From positions 2,102 through 66,101 of the forward strand of contig JAUPTZ010000001.1 of NCBI GenBank assembly GCA_030917815.1: a DNA stretch of 64,000 nucleotides. Reading direction: 5' to 3'. Position 1 is the stretch's first letter; every line of letters begins with the position of its first letter. Positions 45,680 through 60,129 of the stretch are shown one piece after another. Below the pieces are notes generated by a model. It was not told the DNA's origin, made no database searches, and saw only the letters and a program-made list of their open reading frames with translations. This stretch comes from Candidatus Babelota bacterium (lineage in GTDB: Bacteria; Babelota; Babeliae; Babelales; JAUPTZ01). The position numbers and the translations under genes were made by a program.

Positions 45680-45932
45680 AAGGGTCCTTTTCTTTGCACG
45701 AGATTTTGACGATATCTGTAGACAACGTACAGGCGCTGAAACCTCTTTGTACAGAAAATGCTGATATCGACTATCGCTGTCCCACAGCGAAGAATATTCG
45801 GCGATCATTTTTTTTGACCGTTGCATTTCTGCTATGATTGCGATACCATATCCTCTCGTGGCAGTATACGCATTATAACTCGTTGCTTTGTATGTAAATC
45901 GCCTTAAAGGCGGTTATGTAGAAGGTAGGTTT

Positions 45933-47396
45933 ATGTGGGTTGTACTTGTTTGTCTGTGCGGTAGTTTTGCCGCCTCTTGTTTTGGTGTAGCTCTTGAAGA
46001 GACCGCTTTATGGGGTTCTCTGGGTGAGTATCGGTTGTTATCTACTCAAAAAAAATCTTATTTCTTATCGGTTGCTCGAATCATCGACTCATTTTTTATG
46101 CATGAGCCTGATCGTTCTTTTGCCGATCTTCGTAGTTCCTGGCAGGCTTGCCTTCGCTGTTCGTTGCATGATTTTGCTGCAATTGAGCAATTGTGTGAGT
46201 CGATTGCTACACTTCTTTTATATGATAATGCTCTTAAAAATAGCCTTTCTCTTTCATCGGAACAGTCGATGCAGCTTAGGGCTATCGAAGAGTGGAGTCG
46301 GTCACTTGTTTCTGCATTATGTGAAACCGATAGCAGTTTTGAACCTTTAGCGCGTCGCATACAAGAAAAGAAGATCGCTCTGCCACGTAAGTGGCTTCGA
46401 TGGAGTGGGGTTATGGCTATAGGTGTCGTAGCTCTGTTCCTTCTGTGGTGTTTTCAGCGGCCGCATTCTGTTTGTGCCGATTCTTTTCCGATGGCGGTGC
46501 AAGCGTATGGCTTGCTCGGAGCTAGCGTTGATACGCCGCCGTTGCGTGCGCCGGTTGAGGACGGTAGGCAGATTTTTTCTCTCTTGCCTCCGGAAGCAAT
46601 AGATCGGCTTAAAGAAGAAGGCTTAGTGGTGCATGCGGCCACTACCGACTCAATGGTTATTGATGTGCCCGATGAGGCGTTGAAAGGGAAGCTGATACGC
46701 GAAGCTTCATGTGTTCATTTAAGTTCTGAAGATGCGGCGTGCGTTCGTGAGTCATACGAGCAGGTACAGCAGGCGCAGGCGAAGAAACCGCTCGATAGTG
46801 AAGGTGCTCGGGCGTTGCTGAAAGATGACCAGCGCGTTATTGATTTTGTTGCCCATGTTGTTGGCGGTGCGCCTGACCAAATGGCCTTATCTTTAAAGAA
46901 GATTCTTAAGAATAAGGGAGGCGTTGTTGCTGAGAGTTCCAGTAAATCGTCCGGAAAAGTGAATAAGAATTATCCTCATGCAGAGTCGGTTTTTCTTGAA
47001 GAATTGGTTGCCCAGTGTGGCGATGCCATCCAATTGTTTATTGATAATGCAGGACAAGATCCTTTCTCGATTGGAGGGTTTATGGGAGCGCGCTCCGATG
47101 ATGAGGATGTTCTCTCTCTGGTGCAATTTTTGAGTGAAGAAAAAGATTCATTGAGCGCTGTTTTTTCTCTCCTTAAGGATGATCGAGAGGAGCAGCAGCG
47201 TTTTTCGCGACTCATGATTCAATCATTTACCGAAATGATTATGCAGCGGTCAGATGGTGATGCCTTGCAGGCCCATAAAGCGCTTATCGGAGCACTTTGG
47301 GCGCGTAAGACATACGCAATTCTGCTTACTAAAATGCATCAACGGATAAGCTCCGCATCCCACAGCACTAACAACGTTGCTGGCGGAGCTTCTTAG
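45933..47396 (+). CDS. hypothetical membrane protein (487 aa)
   Basis: ATG 45933 is preceded by GAAGGTAGG. It has the N-terminal signal MWVVLVCLCGSFAASCFG and an internal TM WSGVMAIGVVALFLLWCF. No motif recognised. Confidence 0.6.
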   Translation: MWVVLVCLCGSFAASCFGVALEETALWGSLGEYRLLSTQKKSYFLSVARIIDSFFMHEPDRSFADLRSSWQACLRCSLHDFAAIEQLCESIATLLLYDNALKNSLSLSSEQSMQLRAIEEWSRSLVSALCETDSSFEPLARRIQEKKIALPRKWLRWSGVMAIGVVALFLLWCFQRPHSVCADSFPMAVQAYGLLGASVDTPPLRAPVEDGRQIFSLLPPEAIDRLKEEGLVVHAATTDSMVIDVPDEALKGKLIREASCVHLSSEDAACVRESYEQVQQAQAKKPLDSEGARALLKDDQRVIDFVAHVVGGAPDQMALSLKKILKNKGGVVAESSSKSSGKVNKNYPHAESVFLEELVAQCGDAIQLFIDNAGQDPFSIGGFMGARSDDEDVLSLVQFLSEEKDSLSAVFSLLKDDREEQQRFSRLMIQSFTEMIMQRSDGDALQAHKALIGALWARKTYAILLTKMHQRISSASHSTNNVAGGAS

Positions 47397-47405
47397 AATT
47401 GTTTG

Positions 47406-47517
47406 GCTAGCGATCCTTACGTGCTGCTAAATGGAGCATGCAACGAGAGCGTACGCTGTCACGAGTCTTCGATGATCGAGGTGTGATCATTTAGCATCGT
47501 GCCAGGATCGCTAGCCC
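47406..47517. repeat. 112-nt imperfect inverted repeat (long hairpin) between two genes
   Basis: The outer arms GGCTAGCGATCC (47406..47417) and GGATCGCTAGCC (47506..47517) are perfect complements. The inner arms CTAAATG / CATTTAG pair, and there is a central near-palindrome TCGATGATCGA. Confidence 0.8.
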
Positions 47518-47535
47518 ACCCACAAGGAGTATGTA

Positions 47536-47634
47536 ATGATGATTCAAAATATTCAAGCGCGCCTCTTTTTTTTTAGTAGCTGGGGGAGTATGGTTTCTCT
47601 GGTTTTCTACCGCTATTCCGGCTACGAGTACTGA
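47536..47634 (+). other. short ORF carrying the SD and start codon that appear to belong to the LRR gene; it is out of frame because of a T9 tract (47566..47574)
   Basis: AAGGAG (47524..47529), 6 nt, then ATGATG. It reads MMIQNIQARLFFF SSWGS...*. Removing one T gives MMIQNIQARLFFLVAGGVWFLWFSTAIPATSTEEGGTTL-MGVVCG..., in frame with 47654..50104. Confidence 0.65.
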
Positions 47635-47653
47635 GGAAGGCGGTACAACACTG

Positions 47654-50104
47654 ATGGGGGTAGTGTGTGGCCGTGAAGCGACACAGCTCTATACGGTGTA
47701 TTCGGCGTATACTGAATACCTTGAGCGCGGAGGAACGCTGCTCATTTCACTCAACAAAGTGAAATCAATGGTTATGCAGTGCGCATCGTTATCGGGTGCC
47801 GATGCAGTTGCGGCCGATATTCGGGCAAAAGTATCGGTACCGTTGATTAAGACAGGTTTGGCTGATGGTACTTTGTATCTTGTGCCGCCACTCTTTTTTT
47901 CCTCGCTGGGGCTTCCGGTTCCTGAGGGAGATTATCGATTAGACATTGATCGTAGAAGCATGCGGGTCTTCATGCAAATGATGGAGGGCTTGCGTCATTC
48001 TTTTACCCACGTTGCGCATGATAATGAAGCGATTTTGCAAAAAAGTCTGGACGATCCACGGTGCCGTTCATGTGCTATTAAGCGGGTTTTGCGCTCTTTT
48101 GATAAGGCGCCAAAATGGCTGGCGCGTGTTGCTATTGATCGAAGTCGCGATGGAGGATCGGTTACTTCCTCGGTATCATCAGGTGCCGATTCTTCATTTA
48201 GTATTGGGTATATGTCACGTAATAAAAGTGTTTCTGGGCTTGTTCTTGAGTATGGTTTAGAGCGATTTCGTACCTTGTTTTTTAAGAAAGCGGGGCGGCT
48301 TGACCTCTCTTCTCAGGGATTAAATACGCTCGATGATTTTTGTCAGGCGGTTACCACCATTTTTTCGCCGACCGAGTTAGCCGGAATAAGAGAACTATCA
48401 TTATCAGGTAACCAAATAGCTGCGTTGCCGGCCGGTATTTTTTCCTGTTTTCCTAATCTTGAAAGCCTTAGTGTTGGCAATAACCCCTTGAAAAGTATTG
48501 CGCCAAAGGCATTGCAGGGGCTTGAGCATTTGCTCAAGCTCTTTATTGCAGATGTTCCTGATTTGGATATGCCGGCCGATTTTCTGCAATATACTCCTCG
48601 ATTGCAAATATTTTTTGCTTCGGGATGTCGATTGAAAGAGATGATTTCTTTGCGTTCGGTCCCGCACTTAAAAGTGTTTGATGTTTCAAATAATAGGCTT
48701 TCCAGCATTCCTGATATGTCGTTTTTGGGAAATATGCGCGTATGTAATGCGATGGATAATGTAATTGAGATCTGTGATCTTAGCCGATTGCCTCGCAATG
48801 CGCGTGGTGAGATTTCACTGACCGCACTACAGTTGAATGATAATGCTATTCAGGTGGTACCTAGTGCTTTGTACGATATGATGCCACGAAGTGGGCTACT
48901 AATTACTTTGCATAACAACCCGGTTTGGGAGCGGCAAAAAAAAGCGATGACCTCTGCGTTGGCGCAATCTGGGTATCAGGCTTTCCCGCGGCAATGCCAG
49001 TTCGATGGATTGATCGCTGCTCGTGATGTTAGCGCTACGTTATTTGCCGATATTTCCGAAAAACTTTGTAGTTTTTTAGCTAAAGAGAAACCAATAGTTT
49101 CTTCGGTTATTGCGCATGAAATTGGCCGTAAGCGATTGCTGGCTAACATTGAAACGAAAGGGGCCGATAGGGCTCACTGGGTAGATGAAAATAGTTGGTG
49201 GATTATCGGAGGAGTTGCCGTGGTTACCGGTGGGGTTGGCGCTGGGGTAGGCTATTTTGTAAAGAAAACCGGTGAAGTGGCGGCTCGCCGTGCCGTTGCC
49301 TGTGGTACTGCCGGTGCGGTTGGGGGTCTTGCGGCCGCCTATGTAGGGTGCCATCTTGTTTCTGATGGCGGGTATGTTTTTCTCGATACCGGATCCCAAA
49401 CGGTACAGATGACGAGTGAGTTGAAAGCGCTGTATGGCGGGGTGTCTCGCATGGTGGCACTTTTGGCGATGTTGAAGCAATATTTGGTTGTGTGTAATAC
49501 CTGCTTGGAATGGTTGTTTCGGTACGATACGTATGCGGTTAATTCTCGGCGAGTTGATGCGGTAATAACCTATCTCGAGAAGCAGATGAATTTGCAGCGG
49601 CAGAAGTTTTTTGCCCGCATTGATGATCCGACAACTATTGCCTTACTCCATGAGTTGAGTGCTGAAGATCCACTTGCAGAGATCAAAAAACATACGCCTG
49701 ACGATCTTTTTTTCGGCACTCGCTTGGATGAGGTAAGTCTTGATACCGATGCTACTTTTATGTGGATTGAGCTGGAAAAAATCTATGTAGTGCGAACCGT
49801 TATCATGAAATTTAGTGCCGCGGCAAAAGCGCTCCGTGCCATTTTAGTGAATCGTTATTTAGGTACGTATGACCATGCTCAAGTGTGTCGCATTGTTTGT
49901 GATGGGAAAATTTTATGCGATGAACTTAAGTGTGTGGTTTCCGATATTGTGATGCCGCTGCTTACCGGTATGGAGCTGGCCGGAGAAACCGGTGAAGCGT
50001 GGTACAAAGAGTTACTGCATCTGCGTCTCATTGCGGATGAAACCGTTCGGCTGCTGCAGGAATTGCTTCGTCATAAGGAGTGTTTGGATAGAATCGTTGC
50101 ATGA
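47654..50104 (+). CDS. leucine-rich-repeat protein with Gly-rich TM segments and a helical C-terminal domain (the N-terminus probably lies upstream, see 47536)
   Basis: LRR units LSLSGNQIAALPAGIFSCFPNLESLSVGNNPLKSIAP..., LKVFDVSNNRLSSIP and LTALQLNDNAIQVVP. TM segments WWIIGGVAVVTGGVGAGVGYFV and CGTAGAVGGLAAAYVGCHLV. There is no SD before ATG 47654. Confidence 0.8.
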   Translation: MGVVCGREATQLYTVYSAYTEYLERGGTLLISLNKVKSMVMQCASLSGADAVAADIRAKVSVPLIKTGLADGTLYLVPPLFFSSLGLPVPEGDYRLDIDRRSMRVFMQMMEGLRHSFTHVAHDNEAILQKSLDDPRCRSCAIKRVLRSFDKAPKWLARVAIDRSRDGGSVTSSVSSGADSSFSIGYMSRNKSVSGLVLEYGLERFRTLFFKKAGRLDLSSQGLNTLDDFCQAVTTIFSPTELAGIRELSLSGNQIAALPAGIFSCFPNLESLSVGNNPLKSIAPKALQGLEHLLKLFIADVPDLDMPADFLQYTPRLQIFFASGCRLKEMISLRSVPHLKVFDVSNNRLSSIPDMSFLGNMRVCNAMDNVIEICDLSRLPRNARGEISLTALQLNDNAIQVVPSALYDMMPRSGLLITLHNNPVWERQKKAMTSALAQSGYQAFPRQCQFDGLIAARDVSATLFADISEKLCSFLAKEKPIVSSVIAHEIGRKRLLANIETKGADRAHWVDENSWWIIGGVAVVTGGVGAGVGYFVKKTGEVAARRAVACGTAGAVGGLAAAYVGCHLVSDGGYVFLDTGSQTVQMTSELKALYGGVSRMVALLAMLKQYLVVCNTCLEWLFRYDTYAVNSRRVDAVITYLEKQMNLQRQKFFARIDDPTTIALLHELSAEDPLAEIKKHTPDDLFFGTRLDEVSLDTDATFMWIELEKIYVVRTVIMKFSAAAKALRAILVNRYLGTYDHAQVCRIVCDGKILCDELKCVVSDIVMPLLTGMELAGETGEAWYKELLHLRLIADETVRLLQELLRHKECLDRIVA

Positions 50105-50231
50105 TTTTATGACTACAAGTATTGATTCAGCTTGATATTGTCGCCATAAAAGCCAACAGTCTTTACTGTTTGTATTGCAAATTGCTACCATTGTCTCAAG
50201 GATCAAGTGAGTATCCGGGGGCGAGGGTTTT

Positions 50232-50678
50232 GTGAGAATGTATCTGATTACTATGCTTTTTTTTCTTTCTTGCGGAGTGGTTAGCGGGCACGGGTTGTTG
50301 TCGGCAGCGCCGAATGTGTATAACGGCCGGAGTGCCCACTTTATTATTTCGCTGCCTGATGGGGTGGTGTTTCGACATGTGGAGCATGACGCGGAGAAGA
50401 AGATAGTTTTTATATTTCCTGGTCTGAGCATGGTTGAGTGTATCAGGAGAGTTGAGTTTAAGGGTGATGGTGCTCTGTTCGGTCATGTAGTGACTTCTTC
50501 GCCAGAGGGTGCCTGTTTTTCGTTGGATTTGCGTCAAGCGGTTTCGCCGGTAGTGACGGTGATGCGTTGCCGTGCGCCGTATCAGGTTATTATTGGGGTG
50601 CATGATGCTCCGGTCGGTTCACCTAGTTCGCCGTTTCACACTCAGGCTCACCATAGCGCCCCACTTCGTATGGCGTAG
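50232..50678 (+). CDS. small secreted hypothetical protein (148 aa)
   Basis: Signal peptide MRMYLITMLFFLSCGVVSG. The upstream GGGCGAGGGT box is shared with the next gene. Overlapping minus-strand ORFs look non-coding. Confidence 0.5.
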   Translation: MRMYLITMLFFLSCGVVSGHGLLSAAPNVYNGRSAHFIISLPDGVVFRHVEHDAEKKIVFIFPGLSMVECIRRVEFKGDGALFGHVVTSSPEGACFSLDLRQAVSPVVTVMRCRAPYQVIIGVHDAPVGSPSSPFHTQAHHSAPLRMA

Positions 50679-50750
50679 CAGCCGCTTTTTTTTTACCCAT
50701 AATATGCTATAGTTGCCTCCTATTTATAGGACGGGCGAGGGTAAGTTTTA

Positions 50751-52556
50751 GTGAACACAAAAGCATATTTTTTTCTACTGGGTTGTCTATGGTATAGCGT
50801 AGGTCTGGTTGGCTTTGTCGATGATGCACCTCCTAGTACAACAGAACAAGTTTTTCTTGATAAGCTTGAGCAGATGTCTGATGCCGAGATTGAGGCGTTG
50901 CTTGCTCAAGAGGGTATTGATGGGCAAGAGGTTGCTTCGGTCGTTCGTAATGAACTAAAAACGCTTATTGACCAGCCTCAAACGCGCCTTCCTGCGGGGA
51001 TGATGATCAGTAGTGCTGCGCAACAGCCGGCGCCCCCCGTAACGCTTTCAGATCTGATTGCTCGGGAGCAGAGTAAGAGTGGTGAAGATGATAGCTTTTT
51101 AAGGCATTATTTAACGTTTTATTCTTCGCCTGACTGCGAGTCTATTCCTGCTCCAAAGCCGGCAATCGAAGAGGTGTACACTAAGCTTCTTGATTTTATC
51201 GAAACGAAGGTCCGTGGGCGACGGCTTGAGGCGGTTGCAATGGTTGCATTTATTGTATATCGACAGCTTTCTTGGTTTTACTTGCAATACATTAAAGAGC
51301 AACTAGATGAGAAAGGGTTATCTGGCCGTGCGTATGACTATTCATATGCCGAGTCATTTCTTGGGCTGCTGGGGTTCAATTCCCGTGCGCTTGCCTACAC
51401 CGACCTCTTCATTCGGGTGTCGGTCTGTAGTATGCGTCTCTATCTTGACCTATCTTCATGGATGAAAGAGTTTAAGGAAGGCATGTTTTTTGCCGATCCT
51501 GATGGTTTCCTGCGATTGTTTAAAAATCATCTTCATCGTGCACAATTTATGTTTAAGAATCATGATTACTATGGCATTCATCTTTCGCTGATTAAGAAAG
51601 TGGTGTTGGGCCTTGCTCTGCCATTTACCTGGGCCGGGCTCTTTTCGAAAAAATCACCAGGGGCGCCATTCCATAATCCTATCTTTCAAAGTGCTCTTGC
51701 CGGGTTTTCTCGGCAACTGAGTTATGAAGCTGGATGGAATGCCCAACAGCGCTTTGAGCTGAAGGTGCCGCAAGAACTGCAAAAAAAGTTGTTTAATAAG
51801 AGTGGTGGATTGATTAGAGAGCGGCTTTTTGTTGATATGTCGCAGTGGATAGGTCGTTATGTTGGGCGGCGCTATGCCTACAATCAAGATATTGAAGCCT
51901 CAACATATTTTGGCAGAAAAGTTGGTAAGTATACGCTCCGTCATGTTTATCTTCATATTCTTATTAATATGATTCGATCGGCTACCCGTCATGGAGCGCT
52001 TCAAGCCACCGGATGGGTGTCGCATAAAGTAGGTCTATTGCTTACTAAGATTGGCTTCTTCAGCGAAAATCCTGCCGATGCTAGTCGGCAGTGGCTGCAC
52101 CGCGAGTGCGTTTCCAATGGTTTGATTGAGGAAGGCCAGCCGTTGGAAGAGGTGCTTGTGTATCCGGCCGCTATTTTTCCGGGAGCCTTTGCGCGTGCGG
52201 TACGTACCGTTATTACAAAACAAAAGCTCGCTCCTGTTCTAGTAAAGAACTCGGCCTTTATCGCTCATCTTAACGCGATGCATGGCATATCGCCGTATGA
52301 TCTATTGCGCATGATGTCGATTAACCCTATGGCACCACAGCAGATGTCGTCTCATGTAACCAGTGTAAAGAGTGCGGTGTCTCCCGAGGATTGGCATAAA
52401 ATATTAACGGCATTCCTGAATGAGTTGGTTCTTGAGGTCTTCTTTGATCGCCAACGCATTATCTGTCAGGTTATTACTGAGCCTCTGCTTGCATTGGCAA
52501 GTAAGCCGGTGTTGCATTCTCTGTATGGTGAGTTTTTACCGAAGAAGAAAAAATAA
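50751..52556 (+). CDS. hypothetical protein (601 aa) with an N-terminal signal or anchor
   Basis: GTG start is preceded by GGGCGAGGGTAAG. N-terminus MNTKAYFFLLGCLWYSVGLVGFV. No motif recognised. Confidence 0.7.
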   Translation: MNTKAYFFLLGCLWYSVGLVGFVDDAPPSTTEQVFLDKLEQMSDAEIEALLAQEGIDGQEVASVVRNELKTLIDQPQTRLPAGMMISSAAQQPAPPVTLSDLIAREQSKSGEDDSFLRHYLTFYSSPDCESIPAPKPAIEEVYTKLLDFIETKVRGRRLEAVAMVAFIVYRQLSWFYLQYIKEQLDEKGLSGRAYDYSYAESFLGLLGFNSRALAYTDLFIRVSVCSMRLYLDLSSWMKEFKEGMFFADPDGFLRLFKNHLHRAQFMFKNHDYYGIHLSLIKKVVLGLALPFTWAGLFSKKSPGAPFHNPIFQSALAGFSRQLSYEAGWNAQQRFELKVPQELQKKLFNKSGGLIRERLFVDMSQWIGRYVGRRYAYNQDIEASTYFGRKVGKYTLRHVYLHILINMIRSATRHGALQATGWVSHKVGLLLTKIGFFSENPADASRQWLHRECVSNGLIEEGQPLEEVLVYPAAIFPGAFARAVRTVITKQKLAPVLVKNSAFIAHLNAMHGISPYDLLRMMSINPMAPQQMSSHVTSVKSAVSPEDWHKILTAFLNELVLEVFFDRQRIICQVITEPLLALASKPVLHSLYGEFLPKKKK

Positions 52557-57387: not shown

Positions 57388-59400
57388 ATGTTTCCTATGG
57401 TGTGGCGATATCAGCGCATTATACTGAGCTTTTTTTTGTTGATGCCAGCATGTTCGTCGGCCAATATTTTTGATGATTTATTTAAGGTTGCTATTGGTGG
57501 TGCCGTTGCGGCAAATCAGGTGCGGCAAGCGGCGACGAGTATAGGTGCGGCGGCTACAACGGTTGGTAGTGCGGCAGGTCAGGCTACTGGCGGCGGCGGT
57601 CTTGGTGCGTTTTTAAATAATCAAGCAAAAGCGTTTGCTGCCGACTTAGCGCAAGCTGGAACTGGTGTTGGCACTGGTTTGACGAATGGTCTAACGCAAA
57701 GTGTCAATGGACTTAATACTGGGTTAACCAACAGTGTAAATACGCTTGCTAATACGGTAAATGCCAACGGGCAGATGCTTAATAGCACGGCACTCTATGG
57801 CATTGGTACGGCACAGAATGTCTCGCAACAGGGGATTGATGCTGCCAATCTTAATGCGCTGGCATTGAATGCCACGGCGAACAATGCAGTGAATACGGCA
57901 AACGCGCAGGGTACTGCATGGAATACGACGGCCCAGCAATCGATTGCATCGGCAAATACTACCGCTCAGCAAGCAATTAATACGGCAAATACCACGGCCG
58001 TGAATACGGCCAACATGGCCAACACAACGGCAAACAATGCGGTGAATGCGGCTAACACGACGGCAAATGCACAAAGTGCGGCTTGGAATGCGACGGCTCA
58101 ACAGTCTGCCAACATGGCCAATGCCACGGCGAACAATACAATGAATGCGGCTAACACGACGGCAAACAATGCGGTGAATGCGGCTAATACGACGGCAAAT
58201 GCACAAAGTGCGGCTTGGAATACGACGGCTCAACAGTCTGCCGACATGGCCAATGCCACAGCGAACAATACAATGAATGCGGCCACTACAACGGCACAAT
58301 CGGCGGTTGATGCCGCAAATGCGCAGGGATCATCTTTTAATACTGCGATGAATGCAGCAAATGCCGCAACACAGCAAAATATTAATGCGACCGGCACTCA
58401 ATTAAATAACAATCTACAAGATCTTGGTACTGCGATGCAGCAAGGAGCTGCTGCGGTGAATAGCTCGGCTCAGCAGAGTACGGCGGCATTTAATAATGCC
58501 GTTCAGGGTGCTAATGCCACCGCCGGTGCTATTGCGGGAAGTCTCGCTTCTGTATCACCGGCCTCATTCGCGCCTACTTTAGTAATTGCGCCAACAAGCG
58601 GCGATATTGCCTGGTTTGCGACGCAGACATTGAATGGTACGTTGCAGCCAATATTTACGGCAGCTGGTGGGCAAATCTTTACTTTGGCAAAAACTTCATT
58701 AACAACACTTGCCGGGTCCTTATTGGCAGTTAAGAGCGCTCTTCTTATCCAGATGCGTGCTGATAAGTTCAAGAAGCTTACGAATGCACAATTCAAAGAG
58801 TACTTGGCCGATAAAACTGCCGAACTTCAAGCAAAAAACAATAACATTGCTGATGGCACCGCTGATAGTGTTGCGCGTATGGTAACCGGTCTTGATGGTG
58901 ACTATTACGTGCCGTATATGACATCGGCATTTACCACGCAAATTACGCAGGCTAAACAATCGTTTGTTAATAATTATTCTCCGCTTGTACAGGACGCTAT
59001 ACGGCAAGCGCAACCGGCCTTATTTGGTCCATTCTTTACATCGTATTCTTCTTATGAGAGTGCGGCGTCGATTAACAATAGTTTACAAAGCGCAGCCAAT
59101 AGTGCTAATGGTACAGTGACGCGTACGATTAATGGTATTACTGTGACGACAACCGGTTCCTTGGATGGTGCAAGTACCTCTGTGGCCACCTCGATGACTA
59201 ATGCTGGCACTGCAACTGCCACAGCGTATCAAACAGCGATGCAGAATGCTGGACTGACGTCGGCGCCATCGACGATTACTCCGGCTGTAGCGGCACAGCA
59301 GGTTGATCCGACGCGCAGCACGATTGGTGGTCAAACGCAAACAGTGGTAAATTCGACAACCGGTGCTACAACTACTGTTGTAGGGCGTCGTGGTGGATAA
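57388..59400 (+). CDS. secreted N/A/T/Q-rich repeat protein (670 aa)
   Basis: Signal-like IILSFFLLMPACSSANI followed by a long low-complexity region with 44-aa repeats (NTTANNAVNAANTTANAQSAAWN(A/T)TAQQSA(N/D)MANATANNTMNAA). The C-terminal ~250 aa are more complex. Confidence 0.75.
   Translation: MFPMVWRYQRIILSFFLLMPACSSANIFDDLFKVAIGGAVAANQVRQAATSIGAAATTVGSAAGQATGGGGLGAFLNNQAKAFAADLAQAGTGVGTGLTNGLTQSVNGLNTGLTNSVNTLANTVNANGQMLNSTALYGIGTAQNVSQQGIDAANLNALALNATANNAVNTANAQGTAWNTTAQQSIASANTTAQQAINTANTTAVNTANMANTTANNAVNAANTTANAQSAAWNATAQQSANMANATANNTMNAANTTANNAVNAANTTANAQSAAWNTTAQQSADMANATANNTMNAATTTAQSAVDAANAQGSSFNTAMNAANAATQQNINATGTQLNNNLQDLGTAMQQGAAAVNSSAQQSTAAFNNAVQGANATAGAIAGSLASVSPASFAPTLVIAPTSGDIAWFATQTLNGTLQPIFTAAGGQIFTLAKTSLTTLAGSLLAVKSALLIQMRADKFKKLTNAQFKEYLADKTAELQAKNNNIADGTADSVARMVTGLDGDYYVPYMTSAFTTQITQAKQSFVNNYSPLVQDAIRQAQPALFGPFFTSYSSYESAASINNSLQSAANSANGTVTRTINGITVTTTGSLDGASTSVATSMTNAGTATATAYQTAMQNAGLTSAPSTITPAVAAQQVDPTRSTIGGQTQTVVNSTTGATTTVVGRRGG
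58021..58284 (+). repeat. 132-nt coding tandem repeat, two near-identical copies flanked by degenerate copies (~57870..58330)
   Basis: AACAC(A/G)ACGGCAAACAATGCGGTGAATGCGGCTAA... recurs at 58021 and 58153 with only a few substitutions. Confidence 0.9.
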
Positions 59401-59427: not shown

Positions 59428-60129
59428 ATGAATAAAAAAGTAGGTCTATTTTTTTTGCTAGGGCTGGTGTCTGCGCAGTCGGCATATGCTGTTGGTGGTA
59501 TGATGCCTGATCCGAATGCTGGGATGGGGGGTTATCTTAATAAGTTTAGTAGCTTTTTAATGAAGGGTACAACGGCTGCGGCACAAGCTACAACCGGTCT
59601 TGCAATGGCTGGTGGCGCGATGGCGGGGCAGTTGGCAGCGACACGAAATAATCTTACTACTGGTTTGCAGGCTGGCATGCAGGCTGGTATGCAAGCTGGT
59701 GCAGGCGGCGTGGCTGGTGCGGGATTGCCGGTTGCGGGTACCGTTCCGGTAGCTGGCGGGGCGATGGCTGGCGCGGGGGCTCCTGTGGTAACTCCTTCCG
59801 CCGATAGTTCTGCGGCCGATGCACAAATGGCCCAAGCGCAGGCGCAAGCCGATGCACAGGCAAAAGCGGCTCAAGACAAGCAGGCGCAGCAAGACGCAGC
59901 TACGGCGACCGATGTTGCCAATTTGAATGCGACGGCACAGGCCACGGCTCAGCGGGCTGAAGATGCCGAATCACGTGATGCGGTTAAGGCTTCGAATGCG
60001 GCGCTTGATGCCGCCTTTAGTCTGCCTACTTCTTCCGATTCAGGTGATGGTGCGGCGAGTACGGTTGGCATTGATGGTAGTTCTGCCGGTGGCTCAGGTG
60101 TTTCTACTGATGCTGGGGCTCCTTTATAG
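59428..60129 (+). CDS. secreted A/G/Q/M-rich low-complexity protein (233 aa)
   Basis: Signal peptide MNKKVGLFFLLGLVSAQSAYA. Contains GLQAGMQAGMQAGAGGVAGAG, encoded by a 12-nt DNA repeat at ~59665..59706. Confidence 0.65.
   Translation: MNKKVGLFFLLGLVSAQSAYAVGGMMPDPNAGMGGYLNKFSSFLMKGTTAAAQATTGLAMAGGAMAGQLAATRNNLTTGLQAGMQAGMQAGAGGVAGAGLPVAGTVPVAGGAMAGAGAPVVTPSADSSAADAQMAQAQAQADAQAKAAQDKQAQQDAATATDVANLNATAQATAQRAEDAESRDAVKASNAALDAAFSLPTSSDSGDGAASTVGIDGSSAGGSGVSTDAGAPL

Follow-up and report, generated by a model that had tools for sequence, protein, structure and literature searches.

The 64,000-nucleotide stretch of DNA analysed here (Candidatus Babelota bacterium, contig JAUPTZ010000001.1; hereafter the window) contains a gene for a leucine-rich repeat (LRR) protein, the start signals and the body of which lie in different reading frames. 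Inspection of the sequence places a Shine-Dalgarno (SD) sequence, AAGGAG, at 47524..47529 (+), separated by a 6-nt spacer from ATGATG (47536-47541). The open reading frame (ORF) beginning at 47536 (frame 0) encodes 32 aa and ends at 47634. The ORF for the LRR protein, 816 aa in length (47654-50104, stop codon at 50102-50104), is in the +1 frame relative to it; this frame is open from 47543 on and contains not a single ATG, GTG, or TTG codon before 47654. At the frame switch lies a run of exactly nine T (T9), with C on its 5′ side and A on its 3′ side. Removing one T (T8 reading) results in an 855-aa protein beginning MMIQNIQARLFFLVAGGVWFLWFSTAIPATSTEEGGTTLMGVVCG and adding two (T11) in one of 856 aa; the T10 reading of the window gives a 13-aa peptide, the T9 reading the 32-aa peptide. 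The elements concerned are:

47536..47565, + strand: start codon and n-region of the predicted signal peptide, MMIQNIQARL; frame 0; gap-free alignment to in-frame relatives
47566..47574, + strand: T9 tract, TTT TTT TTT in frame 0; proposed recoding site, invariant in length and codon phase
47575..47634, + strand: frame-0 tail after the T run, SSWGSMVSLVFYRYSGYEY and then stop; product of the unslipped mRNA
47573..47623, + strand: hydrophobic core (h-region) of the predicted signal peptide, LVAGGVWFLWFSTAIPA; +1 frame; from Kyte-Doolittle hydropathy
47624..50104, + strand: body of the LRR protein; +1 frame; 816-aa ORF with its upstream extension
47654..47656, + strand: start annotated in databases, Met40 of the fused protein; P0001 (NCBI) begins here; not conserved

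All coordinates given in an initial annotation of the window proved correct, and its claim that T9 cuts the LRR ORF off from its genuine SD, start codon, and signal peptide is strengthened by the comparative data below. It had also noted the LRR ORF, listed from 47654, as lacking an SD; the position is correct, but "no SD" was slightly too strong, as a weak purine-rich sequence, GAGGAAGG, is found at 47633-47640, 13-20 nt 5′ of this ATG.

The T9 tract is invariant in diverged orthologs

The orthologs P0002 and P0003 were obtained by protein search at 47% and 42% identity, respectively, and their DNA was then compared; further lineages came from protein searches and contig look-ups. Scans of metagenomes, either by peptide pattern or by the pattern of a conserved RNA core (see below), gave no match. 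P0002 and P0003 have a common layout: an SD, ATG plus nine codons including basic residues, an in-frame TTT TTT TTT, and the main ORF in +1; over the three deeply diverged lineages, the window included, the codons number 9-10. The same T9 layout is present in a sub-lineage (L004) with 94% protein identity to P0002. The 393-kb contig carrying L004 (CAYSBJ010000002.1) is titled "uncultured Pseudomonadota bacterium," a label that is probably wrong because the protein encoded at the locus is 94% identical to that of a metagenome-assembled genome (MAG) of Dependentiae. The nine assemblies, which derive from NCBI, JGI, and Logan pipelines, are distributed as follows, each carrying T9:

Window lineage: the window; L012 (SRR24011150)
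P0002 lineage: L001 (GCA_030917105.1); L002 (SRR13076586); L006 (SRR13076572)
L004 sub-lineage: L004 (CAYSBJ01); L008 (SRR11567520)
P0003 lineage: L003 (JGI 3300027924); L007 (SRR8204324)

Thus, T9 of identical length and codon phase was present in 9/9 retrieved assemblies, from at least 8 samples and 3-4 lineages, and T7, T8, T10, T11, or T12 in none of them (these are consensus assemblies, in which minority subpopulations would be hidden). In the three 90% clusters to which the carriers belong, no member protein was of the size (855, 879, or 886 aa) that an ON allele (T8/T11) would yield. From a single sample, SRR8204324, came a T9 carrier as well as an in-frame relative.

This invariance spans considerable divergence. 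The window protein is 44-48% identical to those of the other carriers, and L001 is 66% identical to L003; identity at third codon positions of identical amino acids is only 0.39-0.51 between lineages, so that synonymous sites are saturated. L001 and L004 are close to each other; here, identity amounts to 0.96, 0.97, and 0.84 at codon positions 1, 2, and 3, respectively, a pattern clearly indicative of purifying selection on the ORF. In all carrier lineages, the ORFs of 816-874 codons are intact and show no other disruption. In contrast, the frame-0 peptides resulting from the T9 reading (16, 17, 31, and 32 aa across the four lineages) are conserved neither in length nor in sequence, and a U10 reading would result in a peptide of 12-13 aa in three of the four lineages.

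In-frame relatives identify the ancestral start

A wider family emerged when 1.84 billion representative proteins were searched with a profile; most of its members have an ordinary, contiguous predicted signal peptide at the N-terminus. Three closer relatives, for which DNA was compared (L009, L010, and L011, encoding P0014, P0015, and P0016, respectively), are syntenic and preceded by the same RNA leader; in each, an SD is followed at the corresponding spacing by a start codon and a contiguous predicted signal peptide, and the T run is lacking. The N-termini of the carriers in the T8 reading align without gaps to P0014, P0015, and P0016, for example MINNIGRNIFFLICV to MINSIRIHSFMVACI, MINNIGRNIFFLICVSSSAAYG to MINSIRIHSFMVACIAVSYIMA, and MMIQNIQARLFFLVAG to MMRTRIMLLSVLIVG. 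Thus, homology extends across the frameshift site. By position, ATG 47536 is homologous to the starts of the contiguous signal peptides, which marks it, on comparative grounds, as the true and ancestral start. A purine-rich SD-like sequence is present at the equivalent site in all orthologs. The initial annotation had considered, as an outcome that would speak against its reading, that orthologs might start at the equivalent of 47654 with a ribosome-binding site of their own; the codon matching this ATG is Ala (GCG) in the orthologs, which share T9, and the in-frame relatives begin at the upstream start codon instead. In a neighbor-joining tree, P0014 plus P0015 are the sister group of a single clade that comprises the four T9 carriers. 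The frameshift thus has a single origin and has persisted since.

All T8 readings contain an n-region and an h-region. Hydropathy of the window protein in a 19-residue Kyte-Doolittle window peaks at 1.76 (residues 9-29); among the four T8-read lineages it is the only one to pass the 19-residue threshold of 1.6, and the best 11-residue window ranges between 1.95 and 2.23 in all four. h-regions corresponding to LVAGGVWFLWFSTAIPA are found in the orthologs and in the in-frame relatives, and n- and h-regions in most members of the family. A lipoprotein signal was rejected by inspection: neither FFLVCG nor FFLIC resembles a lipobox, and Cys is absent from this site in the window.

Within the window, T9 at 47566-47574 is the only A/T run of at least 8 nt at a frame switch. 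Its location at an ORF junction, recurring in all orthologs of the clade, is, judged from the sequences, more than chance.

A model of programmed transcriptional slippage

We consider it reasonably likely that programmed transcriptional slippage at T9 yields the exported LRR protein. The gene would probably encode an exported, membrane-anchored LRR protein (as predicted) with a frame that is deliberately broken ten codons after the start. Translation would initiate at ATG 47536, driven by the AAGGAG SD. A faithful U9 transcript would, in the window, give rise to a 32-aa dead-end peptide. In a minority of transcripts, RNA polymerase would slip on the nine-base U:A hybrid to produce U8 or U11, and only these mRNAs would direct synthesis of the full 855-aa protein with its intact signal peptide, MMIQNIQARLFFLVAGGVWFLWFSTAIPA; U10, like U9, would lead to a short dead-end peptide. 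T9 would act as a fixed attenuator limiting output of the exported protein, and premature termination may also touch the downstream genes. We infer from the sequences that restoration of the frame takes place in the RNA and that part of the protein made is full-length.

A nine-base homopolymer mutates fast in length, yet exactly nine were kept, which suggests selection against T8 and T10; T8 would be disfavored as constitutive expression, and T10 as a null allele. Selection on the exact length, in turn, suggests that the broken frame is the favored state and works as an attenuator. In many bacterial genomes, signs that slippage-prone A/T runs are selected against begin at a length of nine nucleotides; a 9-nt run conserved among homologs is an accepted signature of functional transcriptional slippage (PMC1088944). 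RNA polymerase of Escherichia coli slips preferentially on poly(T), and a one-nucleotide deletion rescues a +1-frame reporter, at ∼10% on T8 (PMC6260861). In tssM of Citrobacter rodentium, the +1 frame is restored by slippage (PMC4256274). Of the four causes named in the initial annotation, slippage, transcriptional or translational, is the best supported.

Several observations weigh against this model. The change that it needs (−1 or +2 nt) is not the commonest outcome in classical cases (e.g., mxiE, +1). The precedent for slippage is RNA polymerase of E. coli and may not hold for the polymerase of Dependentiae; slipped transcripts and their frequency in these uncultivated organisms are inferred. 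Carriers were sampled from three or four lineages only. A stimulatory hairpin just 5′ of the run was not significant (z −1.1 to +0.5); more generally, the folds of the 60 nt ending in the T run and of the 95 nt starting there were similar to shuffled controls (z −1.1 to +0.65). In L001 and L003, gene callers put TTG/GTG starts at the 3′ edge of the run, and a start without recoding, giving a signal-less isoform, is formally conceivable there; in the window lineage, ATG 47654 with its weak upstream GAGGAAGG might give such an isoform as well.

A scan for promoters and terminators at the T run revealed nothing above chance. In the minimum free energy folds, the one pairing that recurs, a weak one, is that of the purine-rich SD with U9, which leaves the start codon in a loop (window 47515-47574; L001 1327-1386; L003 2151-2210). 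This pairing may be trivial purine-U complementarity because the energies are the same as those of shuffled controls (z −1.1 to +0.5).

The nucleotide directly after the T run, on the supply of which the frequency of slippage during elongation depends, is a purine in every lineage. It is a speculative idea, to which we attach little probability, that T9 serves as a metabolic sensor in which slippage tracks the supply of this purine, and that it forms a two-layer riboregulatory unit together with the RNA leader (47399-47528). If so, and assuming that the Dependentiae cell lives on nucleotides imported from its host, the U8 fraction would report the nucleotide status of the host and switch export of the LRR protein accordingly. 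The literature library that was searched contained no paper joining Dependentiae with transcriptional slippage; its sole paper mentioning Dependentiae along with frameshifting is unrelated.

Alternative explanations for the broken frame

Programmed ribosomal frameshifting by +1 (or −2), whereby all mRNAs would contain U9 and some ribosomes with tRNA-Phe in the P-site would slip one base forward, draws on the same conservation evidence as transcriptional slippage, and the U run, as read from the sequence, allows perfect re-pairing of tRNA-Phe in the +1 frame. We nevertheless regard it as unlikely. The usual stimulators of a +1 shift are lacking: the next frame-0 codon varies by lineage (AGT, GAT, or GGT), being neither a stop codon nor a rare one that is conserved, and no internal SD-like or purine-rich motif is found directly upstream (CGCGCCTC, AAATATC, and GTCTCAGC). 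Because a +1 slip needs only ∼4 U, ribosomal frameshifting also leaves the exact number of nine unexplained, which is a length typical of RNA polymerase slippage (PMC1088944). Slipped-strand phase variation, with T9 as the OFF state and T8 or T11 as the ON state of a contingency locus for a surface or host-interaction protein, had been another of the causes named initially and is likewise improbable. For pilC of Neisseria, Jonsson et al. reportedly located the tract in the signal-peptide region in 1991, and one may speculate that intracellular bacteria with reduced genomes lack efficient mismatch repair. Such loci classically have a homopolymer in the 5′ part of the coding sequence for a surface protein, as in pilC (PMC5953494), but known tracts vary widely between strains, G(9-20) in the case of pilC (PMC5953494). 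Here, neither length polymorphism (exactly T9 in all nine assemblies) nor, among the cluster members, an ON-length allele was found, which disfavors phase variation.

An ancient frameshift that became fixed without any recoding would mean that the Sec signal was lost and that translation starts downstream, at ATG 47654 in the window or at TTG/GTG bordering the run in the orthologs. These are the very starts annotated by gene callers and by NCBI, GAGGAAGG precedes ATG 47654 by 13-20 nt, and conservation of the mature region sets in around residue 38. However, from one lineage to the next, the downstream starts show neither conservation nor homology (Ala stands in place of Met40 in the others), and the TTG/GTG codons lack a purine-rich SD. 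Moreover, the SD, the ATG, the basic n-region, the open +1 frame, the hydrophobic h-region, and the exact T9 all persist despite saturated divergence, and a neutral T9 would be expected to drift in length. We thus hold a frameshift without recoding to be quite improbable, and just as doubtful its corollary that the protein inserts by an internal hydrophobic hairpin or stays cytoplasmic, with the mini-ORF as a leftover or a leader peptide; that the frame-0 peptides are wholly unconserved argues against a functional leader peptide. Finally, one-base homopolymer miscalls are the commonest source of apparent frameshifts in MAGs, and the initial annotation had considered a sequencing error or a frameshift pseudogene. 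Such an error, or a decaying pseudogene, is now highly improbable and effectively refuted: the nine independent assemblies agree across samples, pipelines, and lineages, A/T runs of 8 nt inside long ORFs of the window leave these ORFs open on both sides, and the 2.5-kb ORF is under purifying selection and without any other lesion in all carrier lineages. Transcriptional slippage remains our preferred explanation.

The LRR protein

The 816-aa product is identical to P0001, a protein annotated by NCBI in a MAG of Candidatus Dependentiae (TM6). Two features were assigned in its body:

48386..48715, + strand: LRR region, residues 284-393 of the fused protein (LRR_8, E=5e-15; LRR_4, E=3e-14)
49202..49360, + strand: two adjacent glycine-rich hydrophobic segments, residues 556-608, putative transmembrane hairpin; from a hydropathy scan

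Pfam detected LRRs only (residues 284-393), at 55.4 bits for LRR_8 and 53.4 bits for LRR_4, each above the gathering cutoff of 27. A profile search of PDB sequences retrieved the LRR ectodomains of LGR4 and LGR5, matching only the region found by Pfam. The glycine-rich hydrophobic pair is also kept in the orthologs, and its sequence suggests a membrane hairpin (by prediction only). From an alignment of three sequences, AlphaFold2 gave a model of P0002 that was too poor for use (mean predicted local distance difference test score of 40, predicted template modeling score of 0.28).

A structured RNA leader precedes the gene

The intergenic region upstream of the LRR gene folds into a conserved structure, located as follows:

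47399..47528, + strand: structured RNA leader of ∼126 nt, comprising the whole intergenic region directly 5′ of the SD of the LRR gene
Other lineages: L001 1218-1339; L003 2034-2158; L004 3836-3961; L009 562-690; L010 2081-2208; L011 2237-2363

It consists of a 19-bp closing helix and inner hairpins, with the near-invariant core GAGCG.UA.GCUGUCACG. Compensatory changes occur in 16 of 37 pairs, and 91.8% of the cells are paired; none of 500 shuffles came up to these values, and in slid controls 26-44% are paired. The leader is found in seven lineages, in T9 carriers and in the in-frame L009, L010, and L011 alike; it goes with the locus and is independent of T9. It is single-copy within the window, and a scan of 47200-47800 against Rfam at E≤1 gave no match. 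It may represent a new cis-regulatory leader, or a small RNA, of Dependentiae.

Homopolymers and gene neighborhood in the window

The window contains 30 A/T runs of 7 nt, 15 of 8 nt, 2 of 9 nt, and none that is longer. Runs of 7 and 8 nt occur ∼5- to 10-fold more often than composition would predict; the drop at nine, although based on small numbers, is suggestive of selection against runs of at least 9 nt. The second T9 (50686-50694) was rejected as an ORF junction: it is intergenic, 8 nt past the stop of a 148-aa ORF and 57 nt ahead of the GTG start of a 601-aa ORF, and might belong to a terminator, as its tail, or to a promoter region. In other predicted exported proteins of the window, FFL or FFLL at the start of the h-region is encoded by in-frame T7-T8 (50257-50264, 57430-57437, 59449-59456, and 50768-50774). 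The T9 of the LRR gene is in effect such an in-frame T8 coding for FFL (as at 50257, 57430, and 59449) plus one. The recurrence of T-rich signal-peptide tracts means that the genome offers a ready source of slippery sites.

Gene order around the LRR gene is kept (window 45888-52556; L001-L003, L010, and L011): a ∼500-aa protein, the RNA leader, the LRR protein, a ∼140-aa protein, and a ∼600-aa protein. For each of the two downstream proteins, a signal peptide is predicted. A Pfam scan of the flanking 502- and 601-aa proteins, which covered those two, detected no domain, and the orthologs of the 148-aa protein have no recorded hit. The gene set may be an operon. L001 (NCBI MAG) has the 601-aa gene's ortholog in two pieces, of 123 and 443 aa; it is intact, with 599 aa, in L002 (Logan), a near-identical strain. 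The split (∼5452 in L001, ∼5994 in L002) results from a TGT-to-TGA nonsense single-nucleotide polymorphism rather than from a homopolymer, which is either population variation or an error in the MAG consensus.

Significance and comparison with known systems

Few chromosomal, non-mobile bacterial genes are known to need programmed transcriptional slippage, those cited being dnaX, Shigella secretion genes, and tssM. The LRR gene, if confirmed, would add an example far removed in phylogeny, from a phylum that is host-associated and uncultivated. Since the proposed recoding site is inside the predicted signal peptide, slippage would then decide whether the exportable protein is made. The single origin, the in-frame sisters, and the retention of the exact length through saturating divergence argue that the broken frame itself is adaptive. 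For predictions of effectors and secretomes in Dependentiae there is a practical consequence: as annotations start at non-homologous internal codons and miss the signal peptide, the LRR protein will be misclassified. Independently of this, the RNA leader, for which Rfam has no family, may be a new cis-regulatory RNA.

The case resembles mxiE of Shigella flexneri, where a T run on the sense strand is likewise situated near the 5′ end of a non-mobile host-interaction gene, where a short upstream ORF overlaps a long downstream one (mxiEa and mxiEb), and where slippage is required for the longer, functional product (PMC1088944; PMC5009743). Effects on the adjacent downstream gene are noted for mxiE in the cited review (PMC1088944; PMC5009743). 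In contrast, mxiE needs one extra nucleotide, whereas here one U fewer or two more would be needed; the site here splits a predicted signal peptide and would gate export competence, and the mechanism was established experimentally for mxiE but is proposed from sequence here. Also similar is tssM1 of C. rodentium, a secretion-related cellular gene that is broken at a homopolymer and in which the +1 frame is restored (PMC4256274). Its tract, however, is A11 and late in the gene, and both length variants of the protein are functional, whereas here the unslipped product is a non-conserved peptide of 16-32 aa for which no function is evident. dnaX of Thermus thermophilus and the A9/T9 sites of IS elements share with the LRR gene a conserved run of nine A or T, conservation being the diagnostic criterion (PMC1088944). 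They differ in that slippage produces two useful proteins in a set ratio or a transposase fusion, compared with the likely attenuation of a single product here.

Genes frameshifted at homopolymers are known from host-dependent bacteria, Buchnera and Blochmannia, as far as the cases cited in PMC5009743 go. There, the frameshifts affect many genes and are read as drift-driven damage tolerated via slippage, whereas here it is one gene in 64 kb, the exact tract length of which appears to be under stabilizing selection. Slippage throughout the genome as in Buchnera was rejected for the window, in which no second A/T run of at least 8 nt coincides with a frame switch. Tamas et al. are said to have shown in 2008 that the poly(A)-frameshifted genes of Buchnera and Blochmannia are conserved between species and expressed through slippage. 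In pilC of Neisseria, too, the coding sequence of an exported protein contains, toward its 5′ end, a homopolymer that functions as an on/off switch (PMC5953494). The tracts of phase-variable surface genes are, however, runs of G or C with a length that varies between strains (9-20), whereas the tract here is always T9 and always in the OFF frame. Conserved, programmed frameshifting at homopolymers is thus already known, and the case described here is nearest to mxiE and tssM; what is unusual about it is the site inside a predicted signal peptide, the need for a change of −1 U or +2 U, and the very clean phylogenetic evidence for selection on tract length.

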